Shown: piece after piece, positions 7,153-63,837 of the stretch
How positions within the stretch are numbered: the stretch's first letter is position 1
Layout of the letters: each line of letters begins with the position of its first letter
Source: Chrysemys picta bellii
Lineage: Eukaryota
Assembly (NCBI RefSeq): GCF_011386835.1
Contig: NC_088812.1
Location: 12,586,001-12,650,000, forward strand
Length of the DNA: 64,000 nucleotides
Direction: 5' to 3'
Made by a program: the position numbers and the translations under genes
Notes under the pieces: generated by a model
Told to the model about the DNA's origin: nothing
The model's input: only the letters and a program-made list of their open reading frames with translations
The model's database searches: none

Positions 7153-8899
7153 GCCCCCTTCGCAGAACGACATAATGTTTAATATTTGGAAGAACTCAGG
7201 TCAGATTCCATTAGCTCATTGGTCACTTATTCGTGTAGCAGAGATCTGGTTTGGCCAGATGCAAAGAGAATGGATTTTGTTTATTCTAAGCAGCAGCCGG
7301 CTTGTGGGTGGAGTAGGGTCTAGTGGTTAGAGCACAGGCTTTTGCATCAGGACTCCTAGGTTCTATTCCCACCTCTGAGAGCGAGGTCTCATGGTTAGAG
7401 CAGATGGCCTGTCAGTCAAAACCCAGTTTTACCACTGTGCGACAGGAGGCAAATCGCTTCTCTTCTGCGCCTCAGTCTTTCCACCTTAAAATGGGTCTAT
7501 TTATGATGTGCCTTGCAGTAGTGCCCAGGGTGCAGTCATGGACGGTTGCGCTAGGTGTGGTACATACCCACTGCAGAAAAACCAGCCTGTCCCTGGAGAG
7601 CTTACATCTACCTCTTAGGAAGCTGATGAAGCTCAAGTCATGAATATTGGGAAAGTATTTCGAGATCTTCAGAGACGAGCCTCAGGAAAGCCCAAAGCAG
7701 AATGAGTTTTTATCTGCACGAACGTAATGGTGAAAGTGAGGCGCACAGCAAGGAAGGGACTGGCCCACGGCACCCAGAGTATCGGTCCTGTCCCATCTGC
7801 TACCGATTTGTGGCTCCAAAACGAGACGTCACTGACAGTCGACGGTACAGATCCTACAGGCTTTGGCCAGCAATGAAATCGTTCCCCATGGCCATCTGTG
7901 ACATGACTGACACATGAGCACTGTGGAGCCTTTGTCTCACGCCGGTGGAAGACTGCCCCAAAGCACGTCCCCGGGAGATGTCAGAGTCTGTATGTACCTG
8001 GCTTTCAGACCAGACCAGCCGACGCTATCCGAGACACACACAGAACGGCTGGAGCCGGATCCCTTCGGGGAAGAGACCCCCGGGCTCCGGGAAATGAGAG
8101 AGCGCGGAAAGGAAGGAGCCAATCCACACAATAAACCGGCACCGCAACCGCCCCCTGGGTCCCCGTTCACGAGCTGAGGCCTGATGGGCAGCGAGCAAAG
8201 CGCATGGCCGCCCTGTCTCCCAGCCAAGCCGCACGGGAGCTCGTCACCCGAAATGGCCAGGCGCAGAACCAAACCAGTTCAGCAGGAACTCCACCGCCTT
8301 CCACTGCCAGCTCTTTTGTCTGCCGGATTAAAGAGCCCTGAGCAGGTGCTTCCAGGCCGGGCTCAAGTCACCGGTTGGACCTTCTCACAGATGAGTTGTG
8401 CTGCCCTGCTCAGAATGGCCAGGGCTGGGCGCAGCTCGTGGTGCACGAATCCCCTGGGGGCGAGGGGGGCGCGCGTTTGGCTGGCTGCGTTAGGCTGCTA
8501 GGTCTGAAATCCCCCGTGCGGAGGGGGCCTAAGGCCCAGACCCTCAAAGGAAGTTTGGAGTCTCAGTACTTTGCAGGAGCTGGGCCTTCGTGGTTTAGTT
8601 TTTGGAGCGGAAGCTGAAAGCTGGTTCTGAGCGAGGGCCTCAGGGCTTCCGAGGCGCCGGACAAACGGGGGCACTTGCCATCGATCGATCATAATCTTAA
8701 CCCTGGGACTCCCCCTTCATATTCTGCCAGGCGGAGCCCAGGCAGGGCTGGGGGATCCCGCATGCGGGGTGGGGGGAAGGGAGGGGAGCAGCTCCCTGGG
8801 GATAGGGGAGCACCTGGAGGGAGGGGAGTCTCCTTAGGGAGGGGGGGCCTGGCCCGCTCCAGCTCGGGAGGGGGCTCAAGGAATCTGGGGGGGGAATCC

Positions 8900-12493: not shown

Positions 12494-13018
<525 letters not shown>

Positions 13019-13367
13019 TAGGCAGTGAGATGGGGCCACCTCACCCGGATAGGTGCCCCCGATGGGCTGAACATCCCGGTCCTCCCTGCACCAGGACCCC
13101 CGGCTCCAGCTGATCCCGCCTCCTGCGGACTCCTCCAAGGCTGTCATGCCACCAACAGCACTTAGGGGGTGGGAGAGATCCGGCTGCATCCCCTGCGCCT
13201 ACTCCAGGCTCCCAGACCCATGGCCTCACACCACCCTGCCGCTCCGTTCCTGGACCAGAGTCCTACTAGGGAGAGGAGTGTCTAACGGTTACCCCCACAA
13301 GGCTGGGAGCCCGGACTCCTGGGTTCTATTCTCAGCTCCCCCCAAAATTCACTGTCTCGCCTTCGGT

Positions 13368-13465
13368 GAGTTTCCCTTTCTGTGCCTCGGTTTCTCCATC
13401 TGCAAAATGGGGATTACGAAGTTTCCCGGAGGCCTGTGGTGTGTAAAGCCCTTTGGGGTCCTTGG
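13368..13465 (+). mobile_element. CORE-SINE/MIR-like remnant in CDK2 intron 4
   Basis: ctgtgcctcggtttctccatctgcaaaatggggatta...gtgtaaagccctttgggg. Confidence 0.6.
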
Positions 13466-13501
13466 AGCGGAAAGGGGGAGAGATGTCCCTGTCGTGATTA
13501 A

Positions 13502-13861
<360 letters not shown>

Positions 13862-14209
13862 TGACTTAGTTACTCCATCCTGCCTCTTGCACCCAGCCAC
13901 CACCAGGCGCAGCGGGTCTCGCTGCCTGGCCTGGTGCTCCACAGAGGAGTCTCCCTTGTTCGTTTTCCCCCAGGCGTGAGAGGCAGCGTTAAGCGTGTGA
14001 TGGGGCAGATCAAGGCCCCCCCCCCACCCCACACGCACTGCCAGAGCTGCTGATGGTGTCAGATGGGCAGCCTCAGCCTCGCTTCCTCTGCCCAGGGGCA
14101 GCTCCGGGATGCGCTTGGTGACGTCCCTGGAGAGGGGTGCTGACCCGCCGAGCAGGAACCGGGAAATAAAAGGGCTCTGTTGTGTTCTCGGGGGGGGGGG
14201 GGGGGGGGT

Positions 14210-14531
14210 GCCCTGCCTGGCATTTCCCCCGCCCCAGGGGAAGGGGTTGTGCTGGCAGCGGGGGGACGAAGAGGGGTGTCATGCAGAACACGTGGGCTGG
14301 TGTCTGCATCACTGGGTGGGCAAGAAGGGAGCAGACCACGGAGTGGGCTGTTTCCCCCAGGAGCCAGTTGGCCGTAACCCTTCGTTCCCAGGTCACCCCC
14401 ACCGCTGCCGGGTAGAGGCTTTGCTGCAGTGTGGGGGGGTCAGTCACAAGGCTGTCGAGTGAGGGGATGATTCGTAGGGTTTAAGGCCAGAGGGGATCAG
14501 GAAACGATCCTTCCCTCTGTGCTGAGCCGGT
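14210..14531 (+). repeat. 322-bp host intron segment, left copy of the duplication flanking the retrotransposon
   Basis: gccctgcctgg...tgctgagccggt appears identical to 20521-20842. Confidence 0.95.
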
Positions 14532-14941
14532 TGGGGGAGTTAGGGCCCTGCACCCCTCTTCCCGAGATTCACTGCGACTCTCAGCCAGCCAGTAAAGCAG
14601 AAGGTTTATTCAAGGACAGGAACACAGTCTCAAGCAGAGCGTGTAGGTACGACCAGACCCCCCTCAATTAGGTCCCTCTGGGAGGTTCAGGGAGCTTAGA
14701 CCCCAGCTTGGGGTTCCCTGCGTTGCACCACCCAGCCCCAACCGAAACTAAACTCCCAGCCCCTCCCGCTGCTCCTCTCCTTTGTTCAGTCTCCCGGGCA
14801 GAAGGTGTTAATTCTCCCCACCCCCGTTCCTGGCTCAGGTTACAGCTCAGGTAGCTCCCTTCAAGGGAAGTCCCACATCCCCACTGCAACCCCCCTGCAA
14901 CATTCCCAGGTCAAATCTGCCCTGCTCCCTGCTCCGTCACA
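14532..14941 (-). repeat. 3' LTR (410 bp; lacks the terminal 12 bp present in the 5' LTR)
   Basis: Matches 20111-20520 base for base by eye. Begins TGTGACGGA on the minus strand right after the PPT; AATAAA on minus at 14605-14610. Confidence 0.95.
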
Positions 14942-17900
14942 TCTCTCCCCCCTTCGAGACTGAACTGAGCGGGGTCACTCTGACCAGTGACCTGGGGAAG
15001 TTCAGGGCTCCCTCTCCGGGACAACGCGTCCGCTATCAGGTTGTCACGTCCCTTCACATGGACCACGTCCATGTCATAATCCTGCAGGAGCAGGCTCCAT
15101 CTCAGGAGCTTGGCGTTGGCTCCTTTCATCTGGTGCAGCCAGGTCAGGGGAGAGTGGTCGGTGTGCACGGTGAAGTGACGCCCAAAGAGATATGGCTCTA
15201 GTTTCTTGAGGGCCCACACCATGGCCAGGCATTCCTTCTCGATGGCCGCGTAGTTCTGCTCCCGGGGTAGTAACTTCTTGCTCAGGTACACGATGGGGTG
15301 TCTCTCCCCCTTTTCATCCTCCTGCATTAACACCGCCCCCAGTCCTGTGTCTGAGGCGTCGGTGAACACCATAAAGGGCTTGTCAAAGTCTGGGTTTGCC
15401 AGAACTGGGCCACTGACCAGAGCCTCCTTCAGCGCCCGGAGAGCCTCCTGGCACTCCTCGGTCCAGACCACTTTGTCTGGCTTCCCCTTCTTGCACAGCT
15501 CAGTGATGGGGGCGGCTATGGCGCTAAAGTGGGGCACGAACCTCCGATAGTACCCTGCCATCCCAATAAAGGCTTGGACCTGCTTTTTGGTTTGAGGAGC
15601 GGGCCAGTCTCTGATCACCTCCACTTTGGCTGGTTCCGGCTTTAGGCAGCCGCTTCCCACCCGGTGGCCTAGGTAGGATACCTCAGCCATCCCCACCTTG
15701 CACTTCTCCGGTTTTACGGTCAGCCCAGCCTTCTGGAGTCGGTCCAGCACTTGTCTAACCTGGGATATGTGGTCCTCCCAGGTCTGGCTAAAGACACAGA
15801 TGTCATCGATATACGCCACGGCAAAACTCTCCATCCCCCTCAGTAGCTGATCCACCAGGCGCTGGAAGGTGGCCGGCGCTCCCTTGAGGCCGAAGGGCAG
15901 GGTCAGGAACTCATAGAGCCCCAGAGGGGTGACAAAGGCCGATTTCAGCCTGGCATCTGCATCCAGCGGCACTTGCCAATAGCCCTTTGTAAGATCCATG
16001 GTGGTAAGGTACCGAGCACCTCCCAGCTTGTCTAGGAGCTCGTCCGGCCTGGGCATGGGGTAGGCATCGGCTACAGTGATGGCATTGAGCTTCCGATAGT
16101 CCACACAGAACCGGATCGACCCGTCCTTTTTGGGGACCAGCACCACCGGCGAGGCCCAAGGGCTGGAAGACGGCTGGATCACCCCCAAAGCCAGCATGTC
16201 ATTGACCTCTCTTTCCAGGTCCTGAGCAGTTTTCCCTGTGGCTCGGAAGGGGGAGCATTTTATAGGCGGGTGCGATCCTGTCTGCACCCGGTGGACAGTC
16301 AGATTAGTGCGTCCAGGCTGGTTGGAAAACAGCTGCTGGTACAGATGCAGCACCCCTCCGATCTCAGCTCGCTGGGCAGGGGTTAGCCGATCAGAGAGGG
16401 GAATTGCTTCCAGGGGGAAGCCAACTCTTGTCCCAGGGAATAGATCTACTAAAGGGTCATCCCCCTGCCCCTCCCACTGTCCACACACGGCCAACACCAT
16501 ATTCCCCCTGTCATAATATGGCTTCATCATATTCACATGGTACACCCGGTGGTGATGTGCCCGGTTCGACAGCTCCACCACATAGTTTACCTCGTTTAGT
16601 TGCTTGACAACCTTGAAGGGCCCTTCCCAGGCGGCCTGGAGTTTGTTTTTCCTCACGGGGATGAGGACCATCACCTGATCCCCAGTGGCGAAGGCGCGGG
16701 CCCGTGCTGTGCGGTCATACCAGACCTTCTGCTTCCTCTGGGCTCTGGCCAGATTCTCCCTGGCCAGGCCCATGAGCTCGGCAAGTCGTTCCCGGAAGGT
16801 CAGGACATACTCCACCACCGACTCTCCGTCAGGAGTGGCCTTCCCCTCCCATTCGTCTCTCATCAGGTCGAGGGGCCCCCTTACCCGCCTTCCATATAGC
16901 AGTTCGAAAGGCGAAAACCCGGTAGACTCCTGGGGTACCTCCCTGTACGCAAACAGCAGGTGAGGTAAGTACTTGTCCCAGTCCTGCGGGTGCTGATTCA
17001 TAAATGTTTTCAGCATCATTTTTAGCGTCCCATTGAACCTCTCCACCAGCCCGTTGGATTGGGGGTGATATGCTGAGGCCCAGTTGTGCCGGACCCCACA
17101 TCTCTCCCACAAGCACCGGAGTAGGGCCGACATGAAGTTGGACCCTTGGTCCGTCAAGACTTCCTTGGGGAACCCCACTCGGCTGAAAATGGTCAGCAGC
17201 GCATCCGCCACAGTGTCTGCTTCAATGGACGATAAGGGCACTGCCTCGGGGTAGCGGGTGGCGAAATCTACCACCACCAGGATGTATTTCTTCCCAGACC
17301 GGGTCGTCTTGCTGAGAGGTCCCACTATGTCCATGGCCACCTTCTGGAAAGGCTCCTCTATGATGGGCAAAGGTCTCAATGCTGCCTTCCCCTTGTCCCG
17401 GGCCTTCCCCACCCTCTGGCAGGGGTCACAGGATCGGCAGTACTGCCGGACGTTGGTGAAGACCCCGGGCCAGTAAAAGTTCTGTAGCAGCCTCTGCCTG
17501 GTGCGCCGGATCCCCTGGTGCCCTGCGAGAGGGATGTCATGGGCCAGGTACAGTAGCTTGTGGCGAAACTTCTGGGGAACCACCAGCTGCCTCCTGATCC
17601 CCCACGACTCCACTTCCCCCGGGGGAGCCCACTCTCGGTAGAGGAACCCCTTCTCCCACAGGAACCTCTCCTTGCATCCTCTCCTCATGGTCTGTCCCAC
17701 ACTGAGGTCAGCCAGGCCCCTTAGCTTCCGCAGGGAGGGGTCCTTCTGCAACTCGGCCTGGAACTCGGCGGCTGAGGAAGGGATGGGGACCTGCTCCCTC
17801 TCGTCGGCTGGGTCGGAAGCCCCAGCCACCCCGCGGCCTGTCCTTGGGTGTTCCCTCCCCACCCGGGAAGGGTTCGGTGCCTCCGGTGGGACATCCTTCC

Positions 17901-19758
17901 CAAGGTCAGGGCGTAGTGCCCCTCGCCGGCTCTGGCTACGGGTCACGACTAAGGCGGTCTGGGGGCTGCTTGGCCAGTCCTCTAGGTCCCCCCCCATCAA
18001 CACCTCAGTGGGCAAATGGTGGTGCACTCCCACGTCCTTGGGGCCCTCCTTGGCCCCCCATTTCAGGTGTACCCTCGCTACGGGAACCTTGAATGGGGTC
18101 CCGCCCACCCCGGTCAGGGTCAGGAAGGTGTTGGGCACCAGCCGATCTGGGGCCACCACCTCGGGCCGGGCCAGTGTCACCTCTGCGCCCGTGTCCCAGT
18201 ATCCATAAACTTTCTTCCCATCCACCTCCAGGGGAACAAGGCACTCGCTCCGCAGGGACAGCCCCGCGCCAACCCTGTAAACGGAGAACTTTGAATCCGG
18301 AGCATCTGGCCCCCCAGAGAAGCTGGCCGGGGGCCCTTCTCTCTCTTGAGCAGTTGATAAGCTGCCAGCCCCTCTTGCGTGGGAAGCCTGCCCCTCGTCC
18401 GTCTGGGCCTCTACCAAGTTAACCCGGTGCGGGTTCGGTCTGCTCAGTCTGTCCTTGAGCTTGGGGCACTGGGCCCGAACGTGGCCTCTTCGGCCGCAGT
18501 AATAGCAGCTCAGGTCCCGTGGGTCCCCTCGAGCCGGTCGGTTGTCCCTGATGCTGGGCCTTCCCCGTGGGAGGGGATTCCCCATATTCCCCCTTTGGGA
18601 GGTCCCAGGGTGACTCTCTCTCTGCATCGCGGCGGGCCTGTTCCTTTGGGGCTCCTCCCTGCCACCCCCTGACCGGCTCTTTACAAACTCATCAGCCAGC
18701 TGCCCGGCGTGTCGCGGGTTCTCTGGCTTTCTGTCCAGCAACCACAGCCTCAGGTCGGATGGGCACCGCTCATACAGTTGCTCCAGTACCAGCAGTTTAA
18801 TCAGGTCCTCCTTCGTCTGGGCCCCACCAGCCCACTTGCTGGCGTATCTTTCCATGCGGACGGCTAGTTGCAAATATGAGATCTCAGGGGTTTTATCTTG
18901 ACCCCGGAACCTTTCCCGGTACATCTCAGGAGTCAGCCCAAACTCTCGTAGCAGGGCCCTTTTGAATAGTTCGTAGTCCCCTTTCTCTGCCTCTCCCAGT
19001 TGGCGGTACAATGCCACGGATTTGGGGTCCAGTAAGGGGGTAAGGACCCGGAGTCTGTCCGCGGGATCCACCCGGTGCAGCTCGCAGGCCGTCTCAAAGG
19101 CCTCCAGGAAGTCATCCATGTCCTCCCCCTCCTTGTATGGGGCCATGATGCACTTATCAAAGCTCCGTGCAGTCCTGGGTCCCCCCTCACTCACCGCAGC
19201 CGGGGGTTCGCTGCCCCTCAGTCTCGCCAGTTCCAGTTCATGCTGTCTTTGTCTCTCATTCTCCTCCCGTTCATGCTGTCTCTGTCTCTCTTCACGCTGA
19301 TGCTGTCTCTCTTCATGCTGTCTCTGTTGTTCACGATCCTCCAGCTCCCTCAGTTTTAGCTCTTTCTCCCATTCCAGCCAATTCCGCTCCCCGGATGCCG
19401 AACGTCGCCGGGAGGCTCCTCTGCTGGCCGGCGGGCTTCGCCGGGGGGACCCCCTGCTGGCCGGGGGGGTCACGGCGCCCTCGGTATTTGCTGGGCTCCT
19501 CCCCACCCTTCCCCTAGGCATAGGAAGGAGGGGTCTCGGGAAGCCCTCAGCAGCCGGCTGACCACTCCCAGCTGGGACAGACACTGGTGCCTGCGCTGCA
19601 TTTGCCAGGCTGCTTCCCTGAGACACAGGGATCAGTTCATTCGCGCGATCTTCCGCCTCCAGCTGGGCAATGAGCTGTTCTTTGGTGAGCCTCCCAATGC
19701 GCAGCCGCCTCTGCTTGCACAGCTCCACCAGGTCGCTCTTAAGCCGCTTGGCATACAT
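14911..19758 (-). CDS. Gag-Pol polyprotein (1615 aa from first ATG): SCAN-like capsid, CCHC knuckle, protease, integrase, RT, RNase H
   Basis: ATG at 19758 (the ORF track starts at an upstream GTG, 19773). Motifs: LVLEQLY/LRLWLLDRKP (SCAN-like), CYYCGRRGHVRAQC, WDTGAEVT (DTG 18187-18195), HDIPLAGH..CRSCDPC, MDIVGP/LTDQGSNF/SNGLVERFN (D,D35E), EGPF, YIDD (15802-15813), FTDASD/EKECLA/TDH/ADALSR. Confidence 0.96.
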   Translation of the reverse strand: MYAKRLKSDLVELCKQRRLRIGRLTKEQLIAQLEAEDRANELIPVSQGSSLANAAQAPVSVPAGSGQPAAEGFPRPLLPMPRGRVGRSPANTEGAVTPPASRGSPRRSPPASRGASRRRSASGERNWLEWEKELKLRELEDREQQRQHEERQHQREERQRQHEREENERQRQHELELARLRGSEPPAAVSEGGPRTARSFDKCIMAPYKEGEDMDDFLEAFETACELHRVDPADRLRVLTPLLDPKSVALYRQLGEAEKGDYELFKRALLREFGLTPEMYRERFRGQDKTPEISYLQLAVRMERYASKWAGGAQTKEDLIKLLVLEQLYERCPSDLRLWLLDRKPENPRHAGQLADEFVKSRSGGGREEPQRNRPAAMQRESHPGTSQRGNMGNPLPRGRPSIRDNRPARGDPRDLSCYYCGRRGHVRAQCPKLKDRLSRPNPHRVNLVEAQTDEGQASHARGAGSLSTAQEREGPPASFSGGPDAPDSKFSVYRVGAGLSLRSECLVPLEVDGKKVYGYWDTGAEVTLARPEVVAPDRLVPNTFLTLTGVGGTPFKVPVARVHLKWGAKEGPKDVGVHHHLPTEVLMGGDLEDWPSSPQTALVVTRSQSRRGALRPDLGKDVPPEAPNPSRVGREHPRTGRGVAGASDPADEREQVPIPSSAAEFQAELQKDPSLRKLRGLADLSVGQTMRRGCKERFLWEKGFLYREWAPPGEVESWGIRRQLVVPQKFRHKLLYLAHDIPLAGHQGIRRTRQRLLQNFYWPGVFTNVRQYCRSCDPCQRVGKARDKGKAALRPLPIIEEPFQKVAMDIVGPLSKTTRSGKKYILVVVDFATRYPEAVPLSSIEADTVADALLTIFSRVGFPKEVLTDQGSNFMSALLRCLWERCGVRHNWASAYHPQSNGLVERFNGTLKMMLKTFMNQHPQDWDKYLPHLLFAYREVPQESTGFSPFELLYGRRVRGPLDLMRDEWEGKATPDGESVVEYVLTFRERLAELMGLARENLARAQRKQKVWYDRTARARAFATGDQVMVLIPVRKNKLQAAWEGPFKVVKQLNEVNYVVELSNRAHHHRVYHVNMMKPYYDRGNMVLAVCGQWEGQGDDPLVDLFPGTRVGFPLEAIPLSDRLTPAQRAEIGGVLHLYQQLFSNQPGRTNLTVHRVQTGSHPPIKCSPFRATGKTAQDLEREVNDMLALGVIQPSSSPWASPVVLVPKKDGSIRFCVDYRKLNAITVADAYPMPRPDELLDKLGGARYLTTMDLTKGYWQVPLDADARLKSAFVTPLGLYEFLTLPFGLKGAPATFQRLVDQLLRGMESFAVAYIDDICVFSQTWEDHISQVRQVLDRLQKAGLTVKPEKCKVGMAEVSYLGHRVGSGCLKPEPAKVEVIRDWPAPQTKKQVQAFIGMAGYYRRFVPHFSAIAAPITELCKKGKPDKVVWTEECQEALRALKEALVSGPVLANPDFDKPFMVFTDASDTGLGAVLMQEDEKGERHPIVYLSKKLLPREQNYAAIEKECLAMVWALKKLEPYLFGRHFTVHTDHSPLTWLHQMKGANAKLLRWSLLLQDYDMDVVHVKGRDNLIADALSRRGSPELPQVTGQSDPAQFSLEGGRDVTEQGAGQI
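14942..14955 (-). other. Polypurine tract (PPT)
   Basis: GAAGGGGGGAGAGA on the minus strand immediately 5' of the 3' LTR TG. Confidence 0.92.
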
Positions 19759-20078
19759 CTTCCTGCTGGCCACTCACCGGCCTGTGTGCTCACAGCTCCC
19801 CACAGTTCCCAGGGAGACCCCTAGTGTGCCAGCCCTTCTCGAGGTCACCACCTCTCTGCCAGGGTCGAGCTGCAGACTCCTCCGCCCCTGGGACCACTCG
19901 CTGCGATCCCCCCGGGGGACCCTGTTACTGCAAAAGTCCTTCTCGCTGGTCACACACTCCCAGGGGTAATAACCGTCTCTCTCCCACTCTTCAGCAGGCC
20001 TGGTCCCCGTCAATCCCCCTTCGTTTTACTGCTCCCCAGTCACTTACTGCAGGAAGCGCCGTCCACGGGGTGCAGTAG

Positions 20079-20096
20079 ATCCCGTCGCTGCCACCA
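20079..20096 (-). other. Primer binding site, tRNA-Leu(AAG/UAG)-like
   Basis: TGGTGGCAGCGACGGGAT, 2 nt after the 5' LTR end. 16/18 match to the complement of the recalled vertebrate tRNA-Leu 3' end (TGGTGGCAGCGGTGGGAT). Confidence 0.8.
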
Positions 20097-20098
20097 GT

Positions 20099-20520
20099 TG
20101 TTGCGGATTGTGGGGGAGTTAGGGCCCTGCACCCCTCTTCCCGAGATTCACTGCGACTCTCAGCCAGCCAGTAAAGCAGAAGGTTTATTCAAGGACAGGA
20201 ACACAGTCTCAAGCAGAGCGTGTAGGTACGACCAGACCCCCCTCAATTAGGTCCCTCTGGGAGGTTCAGGGAGCTTAGACCCCAGCTTGGGGTTCCCTGC
20301 GTTGCACCACCCAGCCCCAACCGAAACTAAACTCCCAGCCCCTCCCGCTGCTCCTCTCCTTTGTTCAGTCTCCCGGGCAGAAGGTGTTAATTCTCCCCAC
20401 CCCCGTTCCTGGCTCAGGTTACAGCTCAGGTAGCTCCCTTCAAGGGAAGTCCCACATCCCCACTGCAACCCCCCTGCAACATTCCCAGGTCAAATCTGCC
20501 CTGCTCCCTGCTCCGTCACA
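20099..20520 (-). repeat. 5' LTR (422 bp, complete)
   Basis: Minus strand TGTGACGGA...TCCGCAACA with imperfect terminal inverted repeat (7/9); AATAAA on minus at 20184-20189. Confidence 0.95.
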
Positions 20521-20842
20521 GCCCTGCCTGGCATTTCCCCCGCCCCAGGGGAAGGGGTTGTGCTGGCAGCGGGGGGACGAAGAGGGGTGTCATGCAGAAC
20601 ACGTGGGCTGGTGTCTGCATCACTGGGTGGGCAAGAAGGGAGCAGACCACGGAGTGGGCTGTTTCCCCCAGGAGCCAGTTGGCCGTAACCCTTCGTTCCC
20701 AGGTCACCCCCACCGCTGCCGGGTAGAGGCTTTGCTGCAGTGTGGGGGGGTCAGTCACAAGGCTGTCGAGTGAGGGGATGATTCGTAGGGTTTAAGGCCA
20801 GAGGGGATCAGGAAACGATCCTTCCCTCTGTGCTGAGCCGGT
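20521..20842 (+). repeat. 322-bp host intron segment, right copy
   Basis: Appears identical to 14210-14531 and starts exactly at the intact LTR terminus. Confidence 0.95.
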
Positions 20843-20935
20843 AACTGATGTGTGGCCAGAGCATCCCTGGCCCTCAGCTCCCTCCTTTGGGGAGAGAGGA
20901 GGGTGGGAAAGCCCCCCCTCCCCCCATTGCTTTGA

Positions 20936-21238
<303 letters not shown>

Positions 21239-21824
21239 TAGCTTGGGGGCAGGCAGGGGGAGAGGAACGAGGTTTCTTGGGAGAGTGCAGGGCTGGAGCT
21301 GGGGACTGGAAGCCACTTGCCCTCCAGCCGTAGCTGAGCTCCTTAGCCCTCCACTGATGCTGCACGGACAGCAAGAGCCGCCCCCTCTTCCCCCACCCCG
21401 CTGGGGCAGCCTGAGACACGGGGGGAAGTGACTTGTCCAGGCCACGCAATCAGCGGCAGAACCAGCAATAGACCCCAGATCCCCATGCGGTAGCGGCTGG
21501 AACGAGAACCAGGAGTCCTGCCTGCCCGACCCTCTGCCCTTCCGCTGCGAGAGGCGTTAGCCCCGGCGTCCAGACCAGAGTTCATCGCATTGTCTCTAAA
21601 TTCCCCCGGAGATGTTCCAAGGGTTTGAGATTCCGTCTCGTTCCCTGTCCTTAGCGGTGGTGTTGGAACAACTACCACGTTCCACCCCAGGGGCAGCTGC
21701 ACTACAGCCTTGGGTGTGACCCACCCACCTTGGTGCTTCAGGATGACAGTTGCCATGGGAATGGCAGGGTTCCCGCCTGTCCCGTCCCCCACCCACAATA
21801 ACCACCACCCCCTCTCCTACCCAG

Positions 21825-21929
21825 CAAATGCTGCACTACGACCCCAACAAGCGGATTTCGGCCAAGTCAGCGCTGAACCATCCCTTCTTCCGGGACGTCA
21901 CCAAGGCCGTCCCTCACCTGCGCTTGTGA
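21825..21929 (+). CDS. CDK2: CDK2 exon 7 (to stop)
   Basis: cccag| [34 protein letters not shown]. Exon sum 897 nt = 298 aa plus stop. Confidence 0.98.
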
Positions 21930-24865
21930 AGTGGCTTCGGGGCGGGGGCCGGCCCAGCCAGGACTCTGCTGCCCCCACGCTGGCTCTGTCTGGCCTGTGC
22001 CTGTATCTGGATCCGTCTCCTGGCGCTGGGCCTGCCCTGGGGATCCTGTGACTCATCCTGCCCCTGCGGACTTGCACTTAGCCTCCCGGCCGTGCGGGTG
22101 CTGAACGGAGGGGGCGACACCCCCCCCCCCCCAGCCCAGCCCCCGTTGCCCTGGCTGGAGCACCTTGTCTGCAGCTTTGACCCTCCCCGGAGGGCTTGGC
22201 TTCCAGCACCAGCAATGGGACCTTGCTCGCTGCAGCTGGGAGCGTCCCCCCCCAGCTGGCCTGGTTGAGCCCCTTCTTTCACCTCCCTGGGCATGCCCCC
22301 CTCTGAGCCTCTTCAGCGGAGCCCCCCTGAATTCCTGCTCCAACACAGGGTGAACCCCCCCCCCCTCCATGGGTGGAAGGCAGGGCGGGTCTGGCTGGGG
22401 AACCATCCCCTCCTACCAACTAGATACGCTCAGCTGGCCCCGGTGAACTCGCACGCCCACCCACTGCCTGCTCCCTGTCCAGCCCCCTGGAGTCTGCTGC
22501 ACCAGGGACTCGAGCTGCAGCCGGTGCGCCTGGTGACTCCTGTTCCTGCCGCAAATTGGACCCTGCGGATTGGCGGCCAGAATCCCCAGTGGCTCTTTGG
22601 GTTGGGGGGGCCCACACGTCCCCAACCGCTCAGGAAACATGCGTTGTAAGGGCTGATCCTGCAGTGTGTGGGGCCTGCTCAGCTCCCCTCCTCCCCGGCA
22701 GGACCTGACCCTAAGCAGGAACTCTGCTCACTTAGCATCCCCCCTTCATGTCCCATGGGTGTTGATCGACGGGGCCCAAGCCCCTCGCACGTCCTACGCT
22801 GGCATCCTCCTCCCCACAGAACATCTCACCAGGTGTGACCTGATGCATGGAGCTTCTGCAGGGAAGCAGGTTCCTCATCCGCTCCGGGGAGAATCTGCAC
22901 CCACAGGAGGGGGTTTGCTCTAAAGGCTTCACCCTGCGCCGGGTGCTGGACCAGGAACCCAGCAGCTGAAACTGATTGTTGCAGCTGGCTCTTCTCCTGG
23001 CCTCCCCGCAAGACACCCCCCCAATTCTCTGCTCCCGGAAGGGCTTTGACCGCAAAGGTCTTTGTCCCCGAAAGGAGCCCCCAACCTGATGGTGCTGCAG
23101 TCTCCTCCGATAGATTCTCCGCCCGCCGCGTCATTGTCCGCTCATTCGGTGGCACTGCCTATGGCCAAGTTCGCTGCAAGAGGACAGATCCTCGGCGGGC
23201 GTCGATCAGTGTGGTTCCACTGGCAGTTTCTGCCAGCTACGGATCTGACCCCAGAATCTGACGTACACCTCTCTAGAGCTGGTGCCAGCCACGCGCCGGG
23301 CTGCTCCCCACACGCTCTGGAGGGCTGGCTCCCGGAGGGGTGGGACTCCTTGTCACTTTCCTTTGGCTCAGATCTTTCCATGCCAGAGGCGCTTCAGCCC
23401 GTGGAAAGGCTGGCTCCGGCACATGGGGCCAGATCCCCAGCTGGTGCGGACGGTGAAACGCCGCTGCCTTCAGCAGAGCGATGCGTATTTATGCTAGCTG
23501 AGGCTCTGGCCTCTAAAATGGGCACATGCACCCAGCCTGAGATTTTAATTCACCTCCTTTCCTGTGGGCTTCCCCAGCCACTCTGGTGTCTGCGTTTCCC
23601 TGGAAGGTCCGATTTGGCCTCCCAGCAACGAATCTGATTTTAAATCCACAAAGAACGGCCCAATCCTAGGGAAGCAGGGGCAGCTCAAGGGGCTGGGGGG
23701 TGCTCTTGAGTCTGGGTTGGAGCAGTCTTCCACTTCGATTGTCCTGCAGGGTGGGGAAAGGTGTTCGAAAGTAGCCCCGTCACCCAGCCCTCGGTGGCAG
23801 CCAGATATTGCTTCCTTTAAGTGCCGTGCAGATGGGGTGTGGGAATGGGCAGTAAGGCTCCGATCGAGATCCCGGAGGTAGCAGCTAGTGCTAGGGGCCC
23901 CTGTCCACCAGAGTAACGGGATCGGTTTCAGATGAGCTGGTAATGTTTCCCTACAAACAGCCCCATTTGTAAAAGCCTGGAACATCCCATGGTGCGGATG
24001 GCGGGCTGCTGTCACCCGCCCACCGCCAAACTCTTGGGGTCTACTTAAAGAGGAGATGGGGGGAGGGGGAAATCCACATCTAAACCAAAAGAGATCAGTT
24101 GACAATAGATGAATAGACTATTTAAAAACAGACTTAGTGTATTTTCTAGTAAAGCATTTTATATTGAAGGGTTGTTTATAAAAGTATTTTAGAGGTACAC
24201 ATTAATATTCCAGGAAAGGAATGAGCATTAAGGGAAGCTGTGGATTTAGCTCATAAGCCACATGGGCCTTTTCCAGGAGAGGGTTAAAAGTCAGAATGGT
24301 TCTGTTCCTATCGCAGCTATTTTGAGCTCTTGTATCTTGAGTTTCTTTAGAGCAGAAAGGTTGTGTCTCATTTCCTTCCACAGCAGACTAGCTTTTTTTC
24401 TCAACTCAGTTGCCTAAAGAAAAATGTAGGGTTAGGACAGCAACGTAAAGTGCCTGATGGGAACCAGTTTGAAGAGTGAGGGGAAATTGAGTCTCCGAGC
24501 CGATGGCTACAGAAGGCGGAAGAGAATTCCCCAAAAACAATGCTCCTGCCAACTCATGATGAAAACAGAGGGAAGGAGAGATGGAGATGCGGGTTAACAG
24601 CTATAATGACACAATATTTGGGAGCATAAATATATTTTTTTTGGACTGGAACAAATAGGGGAATATTTATAAGGCTGTGTTAGTTTTAAAGCAGAGCTCT
24701 GGATTTGTATAAAATTTGTTAGACAAGCACTGTGGAGTTTTTGTAAGTGAATATTTTTAAAAAACAAACCCTCGAATATATTTGTCGTCCTTGATTTTTG
24801 TAATTCTTTGTAGGCTGTTGTTTCTTACCAAATGTTAATAATATTATGGGATTGGTTTATAAATC

Positions 24866-47736: not shown

Positions 47737-47746
47737 NNNNNNNNNN
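47737..47746. other. Assembly gap (10 N)
   Basis: Run of n characters; true gap size unknown. Confidence 1.
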
Positions 47747-50075
47747 CCTGCTCCCCCAGCCCTGCGCTTCCCCCCCTACCCAGCTCTGCCGGTGCCCCTC
47801 ACTGCCCAGCCCCCTGCTCCCCCAGCCCTGCGCTTCCCCCCCCTTCCCAGCTCTGCCGGTGCCCCTCACTGCCCAGCCCCCTGCTCCCCCAGCCCTGCGC
47901 TTCCCCCCCCTACCCAGCTCTGCTGGTGCCCCTCACTGCCCAGCCCCCTGCTCCCCCAGCCCTGCGCTTCCCCCCCCTACCCAGCTCTGCCGGTGCCCCT
48001 CACTGCCCAGCCCCCTGCTCCCCCAGCCCTGTGCTTCCCCCCACCCCCAGCTCTGCCGGTGCCCCTCACTGCCCAGCCCCCTGCTCCCCCAGCCCTGCTC
48101 TTCCTGCCCTTCCCAGCTCTGCCGGTGCCCCTCACTGCCCAGCCCCCTGCTCCCCCAGCCCTGCTCTTCCCCCCCTTCCCAGCTCTGCCGGTGCCCCTCA
48201 CTGCCCAGCCCCCTGCTCCTCCAGCCCTGCTCTTCCCCCCCCTTCCCAGCTCTGCCGGTGCCCCTCACTGCCCAGCCCCCTGCTCCCCCAGCCCTGCGCT
48301 TCCCCCCCCCCCCCCCCAGCTCTGCCGGTGCCTCTCACTGCCCAGCCCCCTGCTCGCCCAGCCCTGCGCTTCCCCCCCTTCCCAGCTCTGCCGGTGCCCC
48401 TCACTGCCCAGCCCCCTGCTCCCCCAGCCCTGTGCTTCCCCCCCCTCCCCAGCTCTGCCGGTGCCCCTCACTGCCCAGCCCCCTGCTCCCCCAGCCCTGC
48501 GCTTCCCCCCCTACCCAGCTCTGCTGGTGCCCCTCACTGCCCAGCCCCCTGCTCCCCCAGCCCTGCGCTTTCCCCCCCCCTTCCCAGCTCTGCCGGTGCC
48601 CCTCACTGCCCAGCCCCCTGCTCCCCCAGCCCTGCGCTTCCCCCCCCCCCCCCAGCTCTGCCGGTGCCTCTCACTGCCCAGCCCCCTGCTCGCCCAGCCC
48701 TGCGCTTCCCCCCCCTTCCCAGCTCTGCCGGTGCCCCTCACTGCCCAGCCCCCTGCTCCCCCAGCCCTGTGCTTCCCCCCCTTCCCAGCTCTGCCGGTGC
48801 TTCTCACTGTCCAGCCCCCTGCTCCCCCAGCCCTGCGCTTCCCCCCCCTTCCCAGCTCTGCCGGTGCCCCTCACTGCCCAGCCCCCTGCTCCCCCAGCCC
48901 TGCTCTTCCCCCCCTTCCCAGCTCTGCCGGTGCCCCTCACTGCCCAGCCCCCTGCTCCCCCAGCCCTGCTCTTCCCCCCCTTCCCAGCTCTGCCGGTGCC
49001 CCTCACTGCCCAGCCCCCTGCTCCCCCAGCCCTGCGCTTCCCCCCCCCCCCCAGCTCTGCCGGTGCCTCTCACTGCCCAGCCCCCTGCTCCCCCAGCCCT
49101 GCTCTTCCCCCCCTTCCCAGCTCTGCCGGTGCCCCTCACTGCCCAGCCCCCTGCTCCCCCAGCCCTGCGCTTCCCCCCCCCCCCCAGCTCTGCCGGTGCC
49201 TCTCACTGCCCAGCCCCCTGCTCGCCCAGCCCTGCGCTTCCCCCCCTTCCCAGTTCTGCTGGTGCCCCTCACTGCCCAGCCCCCTGCTCCCCCAGCCCTG
49301 TGCTTCCCCCCCCTACCCAGCTCTGCCGGTGCCTCTCACTGCCCAGCCCCCTGCTCCCCCAGCCCTGCGCTTCCCCCCTTCCCAGCTCTGCCGGTGCCCC
49401 TCACTGCCCAGCCCCCTGCTCCCCCAGCCCTGTGCTTCCCCCCCCTACCCAGCTCTGCCGGTGCCTCTCACTGCCCAGCCCCCTGCTCCCCCAGCCCTGT
49501 GCTTCCCCCCCCTCCCCAGCTCTGCCGGTGCCACTCACTGCCCAGCCCCCTGCTAGCCCAGCCCTGCTCTTCCCCCCCCTACCCAGCTCTGCCGGTGCCC
49601 CTCACTGCCCAGCCCCCTGCTCCCCCAGCCCTCCGCTCCCCCCCCCCCAGCTCTGCCGGTGCCTCTCACTGCCCAGCCCCCTGCTCGCCCAGCCCTGCGC
49701 TTCCCCCCCCCAGCTCTGCCGGTGCCTCTCACTGCCCAGCCCCCTGCTCGCCCAGCCCTGCGCTTCCCCCCCTTCCCAGCTCTGCCGGTGCCCCTCACTG
49801 CCCAGCCCCCTGCTCCCCCAGCCCTGCGCTTCCCCCCCCTTCCCAGCTCTGCCGGTGCCCCTCACTGCCCAGCCCCCTGCTCCCCCAGCCCTGCGCTTCC
49901 CCCCCTTCCCAGCTCTGCCGGTGCCCCTCACTGCCCAGCCCCCTGCTCCCCCAGCCCTGCGCTTCCCCCCCTTCCCAGCTCTGCCGGCACCTCTCACTGC
50001 CCAGCCCCCTGCTCCCCCAGCCCCGGGCTCCCCCCCAGCTCTGCCGGTGCCCCTCACTCCCACCCGCAGCCCCTG
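47747..50075. repeat. C-rich minisatellite, ~35 copies of a 66-67 bp unit, SUOX intron 1
   Basis: Unit cctgctcccccagccctgcgcttC(n)tWcccagctctgccggtgcccctcactgcccagccc; starts at 47747, 47813, 47880, 47947 and onward. Confidence 0.97.
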
Positions 50076-50957: not shown

Positions 50958-51417
50958 GTGAGGGAGCTGGGACCAGCGTCATGGGATCGGCGGCTCCCCA
51001 GAGCCTCCCTGGAGTGCTCAGCTCTCTGCCTCAGGGCACAAAGGTGGCATGAGAGCTGGATGGGCATCTTGGGGAAGGAGGCATGGTCTAGTGGTTAGAG
51101 CATGGGGGGGCTGGGAATCAGGACTCCTGGGTTCTCTCCCAGCTCCGGGAGGGGAGTGGGATCTAGTGGTTAGAGCAGGGGGGGCTGGGAACCAGGACTC
51201 CTGGGTTCTCTCCCAGCTCTGGGAGGGGAATGGGGTCTAGTGGTTAGAGCAGAGAGGGGTCTGGGAGCCAGGATCCCTGGTTCCGCTCCCAGTTCTGCCC
51301 CTGAGGTGCTGCGTAGCCTGGGGTGCATCCCTTCCCCCCCCGAGGCGGGTGAGGCTCTCGGAGGCCTGCGGTGGATGTTGGCGGATGCACCTCGAGCCCC
51401 TCTCCTTGTCCCTGCAG

Positions 51418-52863
51418 GCGGCGGAGGCCGAGCCGAACGCTGAGGCCGCGCCCGGGGCGCCGTACCCCGTGTTCACCCGCCAGGAGGTGGGGCGGCACCG
51501 CAGCCTGGCCGAGCGGGTCTGGGTGACCTACGGCCGCGAGGTCTTCGACATCACCGACTTCGTGGAGCTGCACCCGGGGGGCAAGAGCAAGGTCCTGCTG
51601 GCAGCGGGGGGCGCCCTGGAGCCCTTCTGGGCCATGTACGCCGTGCACAGCCAGGCGCACGTGCTGGAGATCCTGCAGGCCTACAAGGTGGGGGAGCTGA
51701 GCCCCGAGGAGCAGAGCCAGGCCACCCAGGGGGACCCCTACTCCGGGGACCCCCCTCGGCACCCCGCCCTCCAAGTCAACAGCCTCAAGCCCTTCAACGC
51801 GGAGCCGCCAGCTGAGCTGCTGACCGAGAACTACCTGACGCCCAACCAGCTCTTCTTCAAACGCAACCACCTCCCGGTGCCGGCCGTGGACGCCGCCAGC
51901 TACCGGCTGCAGGTGGAGGGGCCGGGGGGCCGCGTGCTGGCGCTCTCGCTGTCCGAGCTCAAGCGCCGCTTCCCCAAGCACGAGGTGACGGTCACCCTGC
52001 AGTGCGCCGGGAACCGCCGCTCGGAGATGAGCCGCGTCCGGCAGGTGAAGGGGCTGGAGTGGGGGGTGGCGGCCATCAGCACGGCCCGCTGGGGCGGCGT
52101 CCGGCTCCGGGATGTCCTGGTGCACGCCGGCTACAGGGAGGAGGAGGGGGAGGCCGGGGAGCACCACGTCTGCTTCGAGGGCCTGGATAAGGACCTGAGC
52201 GGGGTGGCCTACGGAGCCTCCATCCCTTACCGCACGGCCATGGGCCGCGGGGCCGACGTGCTGCTGGCCTACGAGATGAACGGCGAGGAGCTGCCACGGG
52301 ACCACGGCTACCCGCTGCGGGTGGTGGTGCCGGGCGTGGTGGGCGCCCGCAACGTCAAGTGGCTGGGCCGGGTCTCCGTGAGCCCGGAGGAGAGCCCAAG
52401 CCACTGGCAGCAGAACGACTACAAGGGCTTCTCGCCCGCCGTGGACTGGGACACGGTGGATTTCACAACGGCTCCCGCCATCCAGGAGCTGCCCGTCCAG
52501 TCGGCCATCACCGACCCCGCGCCTGGGGCCACCGTCCCGCCCGGGGAGCTGACGGTCAAGGGCTACGCCTGGAGCGGGGGCGGGCGCGGCGTGGTGCGCG
52601 TGGACGTCTCGCTGGACGGCGGCCGGACGTGGCGCGTGGCCGAGCTGACGGGCGAGGAGCAGCAGCCGGGCCGGGCCTGGGCCTGGCGCCTGTGGCAGCT
52701 CACGGCCCCCGTTCCCCCCGGCGCCACGGAGCTGGACATTGTCTGCAAGGCCGTGGACGCCAGCTACAACGTGCAGCCCGACACGGTGGAGCCCATCTGG
52801 AACCTGCGGGGGGTGCTGAGCAACGCCTGGCACCGCGTCACCGTCACCGTGGCCGAGGATTAA
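51418..52863 (+). CDS. SUOX: Sulfite oxidase, large terminal exon (cytochrome b5, Moco and dimerisation domains)
   Basis: cctgcag| then 481 codons plus TAA. Motifs: HPGG heme loop, [17 protein letters not shown] (Mo-ligating Cys), [39 protein letters not shown]. Confidence 0.98.
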
Positions 52864-61673: not shown

Positions 61674-62678
61674 CATAGACTCATAGACTAGCAGGGTGGG
61701 AAGGGACCTTAGGAGGTATCTAGTCCAACCCCCTGCTCAGAACAGGACCAATCCCCAACTAAATCATCCCAGCCAGGGCTTTGTCAAACCGGGCCTTAAA
61801 AACCTCTTAGGATGGAGATTCCACCACCTCCCTAGGGAACCCATTCCAGTGCTTCTCCACCTTCCTAATATCCAACCTAGACCTCCCCCACTGTAACTCG
61901 AGACCATTGCTCCTTGTTCTGTCATCTGCCACCACTGAGAACAGCCGAGCTCCATCCTCTTTGGAACCCCCCTTCAGGTAGTTGAAGGCAGCTATCAAAT
62001 CCCCCCTCACTCTTCTCTTCTGCAAACTAAATAACCCCAGTTCCCTCAGCCTCTCCTCATAAGTCATGTGCTCCAGCCCCTGATCATTTTTGTTGCCCTC
62101 CGCTGGACTCTTTCCAATATTTCCACATCGTTCTTGTAGTGTGGGGCCCAAAACTGGACACAGTATTCCAGATGAGGCTTAACCAATGCCGAATAGAGGG
62201 GAACTATCACGTCCCTCGATCTGCTGGCAATGCCCCTACTTATACAGCCCAAAATGCTGTTAGCCTTCTTGGCAACAAGGGCACACTGTTGACTCATATC
62301 CAGCTTCTCGTCCACTGTAACCCCTAGGTCCTTTTCTGCAGAACTGCTGCCTAGCCAGTCGGTCCCCAGCCTGTAGCAGTGCATGGGATTCTTCCATCCT
62401 AAGTGCAGGACTCTGCACTTGTCCTTGTTGAACTTCATCAGGTTTCTTTTGGCCCAATCCTCTAATTTGTCTAGGTCCCTCTGTATCCTGCCCCTACCCT
62501 CCAGCATATCTACCACACCTCCCAGTTTAGTGTCATCTGCAAACTTGCTGAGGGTGCAATCCATGCCATCCTCCAGATCATTAATGAAGATATTGAACAA
62601 AACCGGCCCCAGGACCAACCCTTGGGGCACTCCACTTGATACCAGCTGCCAACTAGACATAGAGCCATTGATCACTAT
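61674..62678 (-). mobile_element. 5'-truncated CR1 LINE (RT C-terminal part plus 3' end)
   Basis: ORF 62064-62759: [22 protein letters not shown]...[10 protein letters not shown]...HLEYCVQFW. The tail catagactcatagact matches the 5335 fragment. Confidence 0.95.
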
Positions 62679-63837
62679 GACTATGGTTGGGGGCAGGGGC
62701 AGCTGTCCAGGAGTGGCGAGGGGGCTAAGGGAGGCGTCTGGGGTGGGTGGGGGAGGCAAGGTGGGTACAGAGGCATCTCTCTGGGAGGGAGGGGATGGCT
62801 GAGAGGAGAAGGCCGGGGTAATGGGGTGCGGCTGGCTGAGGTTGGAGGGCTGATAGGGGAACTATTGGGAATGGGGGGAGCATTGGGGAGTGTTTCCCTG
62901 CTGCTCAGGTGTCCCAGACTTCCTTTTTGAAGCCCCTTTTCTTCATGCTTGGGGGGGGCACTGGCGTGAGAGGGGATAGACTGGGGACATACCTGCGTCC
63001 TTCTATTTTCCCTTCTCGGTTCCTTTCCATACACTGCCCTGCAAGGTTGGTAGCTTTAGGGAACTGGGGTGGGGGGAGGTACACCCTTCCCTCCACAGGG
63101 ATCAGACTAAAGAATCCACAATAAATTGTCGCCTCCTAGGGTTTTACTTGTAGTTACTTTTGGAAGAGAGGAAAGAAACACTCTCTGATTCCCCCCACCA
63201 TCACTTCCAGCCTGTTACCCTTCTCCCTTTACTTTGGCCACTCCCCGCTCTCGAATGGTCCTGTAGTTTGACATGATATTCCTCTATAAGAAAAAAGAAA
63301 CGTAACCTGACTGTTTTGGTGGCACTTGGTGGTACCAGGCACCCTGTGGGGGTGTGGGAAGAATGAAGGGTTTCACATTTTTAGAAATGCAACGATAGTT
63401 TCTTATTTCTAGTCCTTCAGGGACAGTGAATCTTGTTGGATTTCCATAAAATTGCTTTGCCTCCCTGCTTCAGTCCAGTGTCTTGTAGGTTGATTTGTCT
63501 GATCATCTTACATTCTTGGAGGTATTTCTTTTCCGTTGCTTAAAGTAACTTACCCTTTTCCTAGCCCGGCCGATGCAGCTGTGTGCACATTGTATTACTT
63601 ACAGCTGGCGTGATGGTGCACGTGCACAAGGTGGCGGAGTTAAGGTTAAGGCTGCTGTTGGATAATACTTAGCACTTTTCATCTGAGAAGCGTGAAACTG
63701 TCAGGTTGGTGTCTGGCTTAGATGATGATTTCCTTGCTCAGCTTTATCTCTGCACTAACAGTTCCATTTGTTGGGGTATTTGGAAGATTTACTCATAATC
63801 TTGAATGTCTTTACCCGCGTCAGACCCCTCTGAAGGC

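Follow-up and report, generated by a model that had tools for sequence, protein, structure and literature searches.

A Gmr1-like retrotransposon between 322-nt host repeats in Chrysemys picta bellii, a candidate for one-ended integration

How does an LTR retrotransposon come to lie between two identical 322-nt copies of host DNA, instead of a short target-site duplication (TSD), and with one of its LTRs clipped by 12 nt? The question is raised by a locus of Chrysemys picta bellii (NC_088812.1, forward-strand positions 12,586,001 to 12,650,000), a stretch of 64,000 nt that constitutes the whole of the DNA analysed here (hereafter the window) and from whose first letter all coordinates are counted.

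Anatomy of the insertion and its host intron

The insertion occupies intron 5 of a gene that, from the translations of its exons, we take to be CDK2; the exon numbers 5 and 6 are assumed on the same grounds. The element is in antisense orientation relative to CDK2, on the minus strand. In order of position, the features of the locus are:

13526–13627, plus strand: host exon 5, an open 34-codon exon with AG/GT boundaries
13628–20992, plus strand: intron 5, 7365 nt as assembled
14190–14208, plus strand: run of 19 G (G19), one base from the joining point of the intact LTR end
14210–14531, plus strand: left copy of the host segment, here called A, 322 nt
14532–14941, minus strand: 3′ LTR, 410 nt, without its terminal 12 nt; AATAAA at 14605–14610 on the minus strand
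14911–19758, minus strand: single gag-pol open reading frame (ORF), 1615 amino acids from the ATG, its last 31 nt inside the 3′ LTR
14942–14955, minus strand: polypurine tract, adjoining the 3′ LTR
20079–20096, minus strand: primer-binding site, 2 nt from the 5′ LTR
20099–20520, minus strand: complete 5′ LTR, 422 nt, TG...CA, with 7 of 9 terminal bases inverted-repeated
20521–20842, plus strand: right copy of A, 322 nt, running on into the remaining intron
20993–21196, plus strand: host exon 6, an open 68-codon exon with a GT donor at its end

The order proposed in the initial annotation (A, clipped LTR, internal region, complete LTR, A) holds to the base. The copies of A form a maximal exact repeat (322/322 nt identical), the LTRs are identical over 410/410 nt (14532–14941 and 20111–20520), and the left LTR lacks exactly the first 12 plus-strand bases of the right one. 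At the U3 end, the 5′ LTR is intact and flush with A, the TG meeting the first base of the duplication, while the clipping affects the U5 end of the 3′ LTR, where the loss takes the CA and the whole terminal inverted repeat. The junction sequences and the lack of microhomology at the clipped joint (14531/14532) were likewise as first described, the joint being blunt with 0 nt shared on both sides, and exon-boundary arithmetic agrees with the suggested ancestral intron of 1054 nt (7365 – 6311, i.e. without the element and one copy of A). The G19 run had been placed 2 nt from the intact junction; its closeness stands, and the distance is refined to one base (T14209) between the run and A. The chance of a junction so near a G run is 0.5% window-wide (runs of at least 11) and 4% within intron 5.

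Once the two LTRs and the two copies of A are set aside, all exact repeats of at least 90 nt in the window are confined to two minisatellite arrays, so the repetition of A is not due to chance. The idea that A is a mobile or RNA element was discarded, because the 64-kb window holds no third copy (best other blastn match, 16 nt) and no Rfam match falls in A; the three matches found over 13000–22500 were all far under their gathering scores. No tRNA gene was found in the window. Nor is A a convincing cassette exon, as pattern matching revealed no strong acceptor and all three plus-strand frames contain a stop. Folding of the native junction sequences placed no hairpin at the break.

Several further features of the intron were noticed. 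A second G run, also of exactly 19, is present at 13785–13803, and the two are the longest homopolymers of the window. A splice-donor-like motif (20838–20846) spans the right end of A, its left counterpart being broken by the LTR joint, and a poly(A)-signal-like hexamer in host sense (15565–15570) inside the element might provide an early end for CDK2 transcripts.

Beyond the intron, the window contains an intact sulfite-oxidase-like ORF with cytochrome b5, molybdopterin and dimerisation domains (51388–52863, plus strand). Together with exons near 39–40 kb that we take to be RAB5-like, it fits the CDK2–RAB5B–SUOX order of mammals. Also present are a non-LTR reverse transcriptase fragment (RVT_1; 62064–62861, minus strand), presumably CR1-like; dispersed repeats of a 74-bp type with a tRNA-like start (families D12–D19; 1034–1900, 7303–7337, 13301–13338 and 51066–51292), which we take to be SINE-like; and two related GC-rich minisatellites 47 kb apart (248–733 and 47747–50062, with 63-bp and 67-bp units).

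Identity and age of the element

The gag-pol ORF encodes predicted SCAN (residues 278–363, E 8.7e-11), CCHC knuckle, integrase (HHCC, D-D-E, SH3), reverse transcriptase (RT) and RNase H domains and no env, the integrase (728–1082) lying upstream of the RT (1209–1368) and RNase H (1433–1562). A protease motif is presumed from the sequence, with no Pfam match, and the primer-binding site is one that we take to resemble the 3′ end of tRNA-Leu. On its predicted domain order and anatomy, the element is a Gmr1-like member of the Ty3/gypsy group. In the accessible text of 10.1101/2025.03.03.638093, Gmr1-like elements, which are abundant in turtles, are defined by an integrase preceding the RT and, in part, by a SCAN-like capsid domain in gag; they use one gag-pol ORF, according to the accessible part of PMC11117352. 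The present copy has the SCAN-PR-IN-RT-RH order, single ORF, length of ~6 kb and LTR of ~0.4 kb typical of such elements, together with a primer-binding site, a polypurine tract and the TG...CA ends of its complete LTR. It departs from them in its clipped end and in the 322-nt repeat that replaces a short TSD, an anomaly of this copy; the TSD length usual for the family was not found in the literature searched.

In a protein comparison (41 matches among 8000 candidates scored), the best matches came from turtles and fishes and carry SCAN, integrase and RT domains. The 1615-amino-acid protein is 99% identical to a protein of Chrysemys picta bellii, whose cluster counts 29 members; its identity to three sea-turtle clusters (577, 509 and 72 members) is 83%. 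These values suggest a young family. In addition, the absence of any difference between the LTRs (0/410) bounds their divergence at 0.73% (95%), provided that the assembly did not collapse the two. The HHCC and D-D-E motifs of the integrase are present and intact, and the integrase region departs from its closest relative in one residue, the same residue being found in three sea-turtle proteins; a defective integrase was accordingly discarded as the cause of the unusual ends. At its own end, within the 3′ LTR (14911–14941), the ORF and its closest relative diverge over the final dozen residues, a hint of either a variant LTR or a gene model with splicing.

Assembly join or genuine junction

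Is the clipped joint a product of the assembly? The animal might be heterozygous for an ordinary short-TSD insertion, with the assembly passing from the empty allele (through A) into the filled one at LTR base 13, e.g. by gap filling near a drop-out of reads at the G19 run, which lies one base from the intact junction. A young insertion is plausibly heterozygous, and identical copies of A would be expected from two haplotypes (P = 0.20–0.73 at 0.5–0.1% heterozygosity). Moreover, 322 nt is near the ~350-bp fragment size of linked reads (accessible text of PMC5411770), and the accessible part of PMC9516828 records that wrong gap filling can produce false duplications without gaps, although by the same account false duplications are most often separated by gaps. 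No assembly gap lies between the copies of A: the joint is free of Ns, the sole N run of the window being 47737–47746. In addition, 0 nt of overlap was available to an assembler, and assemblers that work by overlap or k-mers should have difficulty creating such a joint. Base accuracy appears good, with ORFs intact through 7 and 8 homopolymers of at least 6 nt, and the dimensions of the insertion match those of real, cloned proviruses (PMC5041404, accessible part).

Assuming a normal TSD of 4 nt, 6 of the 11 bases of host continuation agree with the LTR start, as at 3% of 6229 positions. Among six scoring schemes, evaluated with 1500 random starts, two carried the alignment of empty against filled allele to LTR position 11 and one of them also to 13, lenient ends next to the clip at 12 that were reached by 5.8–6.4% of random starts. 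The four stricter schemes stopped at positions 0–2, and none ended at 12. Both the closeness of the G19 run and the alignment stop are after-the-fact coincidences, which could also be biological triggers.

The window has a single gap, of 10 Ns, which is bordered on one side, and not on the other, by a C-rich array of 35 copies of a 67-bp unit (47737–50062), with no exact repeat longer than 155 nt; the order and length of the array may be arbitrary. According to the accessible text of PMC5411770, Supernova writes unresolved cycles as such gaps and drops linked-read k-mers seen in one barcode only. The 10-N gap beside a tandem array makes a linked-read (Supernova-like) source reasonably likely, and if this is correct, the 14531/14532 joint should be supported by reads. 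That the gap is still open also speaks, weakly, against filling with long reads. On the evidence of the sequence, we consider the junction to be probably real and the joining of two alleles an unlikely, though not negligible, source of it. Should it nonetheless be an artefact, the locus would illustrate a hazard posed by heterozygous insertions next to G runs.

One-ended integration, its rivals and its meaning

We favour, with some reserve, a recent half-site (one-ended) integration of the Gmr1-like element in the turtle germline. Integrase would have joined the U3 end alone, at 14209/14210, and a host polymerase would have copied 322 nt past the nick, starting from either the free host end or the free element end. 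The U5 end, still free, would then have lost 12 nt before being ligated to the newly copied host sequence; as no microhomology is present at this joint, end-joining is the probable route. One end of the element is precisely processed and flush with the duplication, and the other combines a clipped end (12 nt) with a long direct host duplication (322 nt), as is characteristic of one-ended integrants, and a single event would be enough, which suits the 0/410 differences between the LTRs.

Close parallels exist among retroviruses. In the accessible part of PMC5041404, aberrant HIV and ASLV proviruses are described with one normal end, the other often truncated, and host duplications that range from hundreds of bp into the thousands. 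For HIV, 12 of 67 aberrant proviruses had one normal end, a loss of 2–23 nt at the other and a duplication of 66–1600 bp, and one of the HIV proviruses had lost 13 nt and carried a 330-bp duplication. In our own count from the table of that source, 16 of the 67 aberrant rows combined one normal end, a loss of at most 30 nt and a duplication entry (at least 50 bp in these 12, 0–4 bp in three, unmeasured in one). These HIV-1 and ASLV cases are, however, somatic and experimental, and usually show short homology at the joint, whereas the turtle copy is of the Ty3/gypsy group, germline (if real), and has an intact integrase and 0 nt of homology. They arose under drug treatment or through mutation of the integrase or of the ends, and wild-type HIV without drug gave 0 aberrant cases in 99 integrations. 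That the turtle integrase shows no defect counts against a one-ended origin. The absence of the usual, albeit not obligatory, short homology at the aberrant end also counts against it, as do the G19 run one base off and the lenient alignment stop beside the clip. In the Hughes model, as given in the accessible text of PMC5041404, the free end primes on nearby host DNA, usually but not always through short homology. Annealing of a primer through microhomology was rejected for the present joint (0 nt); as homology is likewise zero in 53.5% of random joints (13,752 sampled), end-joining is at least as good an account as such priming.

For wild-type XMRV, one of 15 sites combined a 5-bp terminal loss with a 273-bp duplication (PMC2857682, accessible part). 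This clone, C-3, resembles the turtle copy in having arisen with a wild-type integrase and in losing the CA, but stems from a retrovirus in cell culture and lost the U3 end, whereas the turtle copy lost the U5 end. In the germline, 8 of 451 HERV-K(HML-2) sites have repeats longer than 10 bp, six of them of 61–450 bp, and PCR served to check those of 111 and 250 bp (accessible text of PMC5488345); long HML-2 repeats have been linked to integrants of RSV U5 mutants, that is, to one-ended integration (accessible text of PMC4422153). Like the turtle insertion, these loci are natural germline LTR elements between long direct host repeats; unlike it, they are old and mostly solo LTRs or truncated proviruses, whereas the turtle copy is full length and coding-intact with identical LTRs. 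Insertions with such long flanks are not new, as germline duplications of this kind had already been PCR-validated and tied in print to one-ended integration (accessible parts of PMC5488345 and PMC4422153). The kind of event is known, and perhaps unreported for Ty3/gypsy elements in reptiles: the literature searched, mainly open-access papers, yielded no one-ended Ty3/gypsy or Gmr1 insertion, a weak negative. The accessible part of PMC9278108 has no passage on duplications, and PMC9977147 was set aside as a parallel because it deals with non-LTR elements.

A rather improbable alternative has two steps, in which a normal integration with a short TSD was followed by a break ~12 nt inside the left LTR; repair of the host end, templated by an empty homologue or sister, would have copied A before the end was joined again to the shortened LTR. 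The same product would arise if a filled and an empty allele underwent illegitimate exchange, or if a circle bearing A re-integrated. Logically, such repair yields the identical sequence; the G19 run could be a fragile site, and circles with 242–684 bp of host DNA were recovered in HIV experiments (PMC5041404, accessible part). It needs, however, a second rare break, at most 12 nt from the LTR end and soon after insertion, given the 0/410 LTR differences. Of the two origins offered in the initial annotation, half-site integration or repair from the empty allele, the former is thus the better reading and close to the published dimensions, although sequence by itself does not separate it from later repair or an assembly chimera.

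Least probable of all is a prior tandem duplication of A, with the element inserted at the joint between the copies and a small deletion removing the TSD and 12 LTR bases: such pseudo-TSD models are discussed for HML-2 (accessible text of PMC5488345), and 3 nt are common to the left flank and the terminus of A, as might come from a microhomology duplication, but at least 3 nt are common at 8% of positions anyway, three events and an insertion exactly at the joint would be needed, and both copies of A are unmutated.

If one-ended integration at this locus is real, how general might it be? This young, coding-intact turtle Gmr1 family might regularly make one-ended insertions with duplications of hundreds of bp, triggered by properties of the target, e.g. 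long G runs or LTR-end-like host DNA, the copies then being removable without trace by recombination between the duplications. Work by Moreau in 2000 reportedly, from its title, found duplication size altered near LTR-like host sequence. We consider so general a behaviour highly improbable at present; were it true, it would offer a natural germline system in which to study half-site repair in Ty3/gypsy elements.

The copy itself puts 6.3 kb of antisense sequence into an intron of a core cell-cycle gene. Recombination between its 322-bp repeats would be able to regenerate the empty allele to the base, confounding presence/absence markers; some long-TSD HML-2 loci are insertionally polymorphic, and it has been proposed that they can be lost cleanly when their repeats recombine (accessible parts of PMC5488345 and PMC4422153). 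LTR finders that require a short TSD and TG...CA ends would presumably miss such copies. If the junction is real, one-ended integration followed by host repair would extend from retroviruses to a Ty3/gypsy element in the reptile germline, caught here before mutation.
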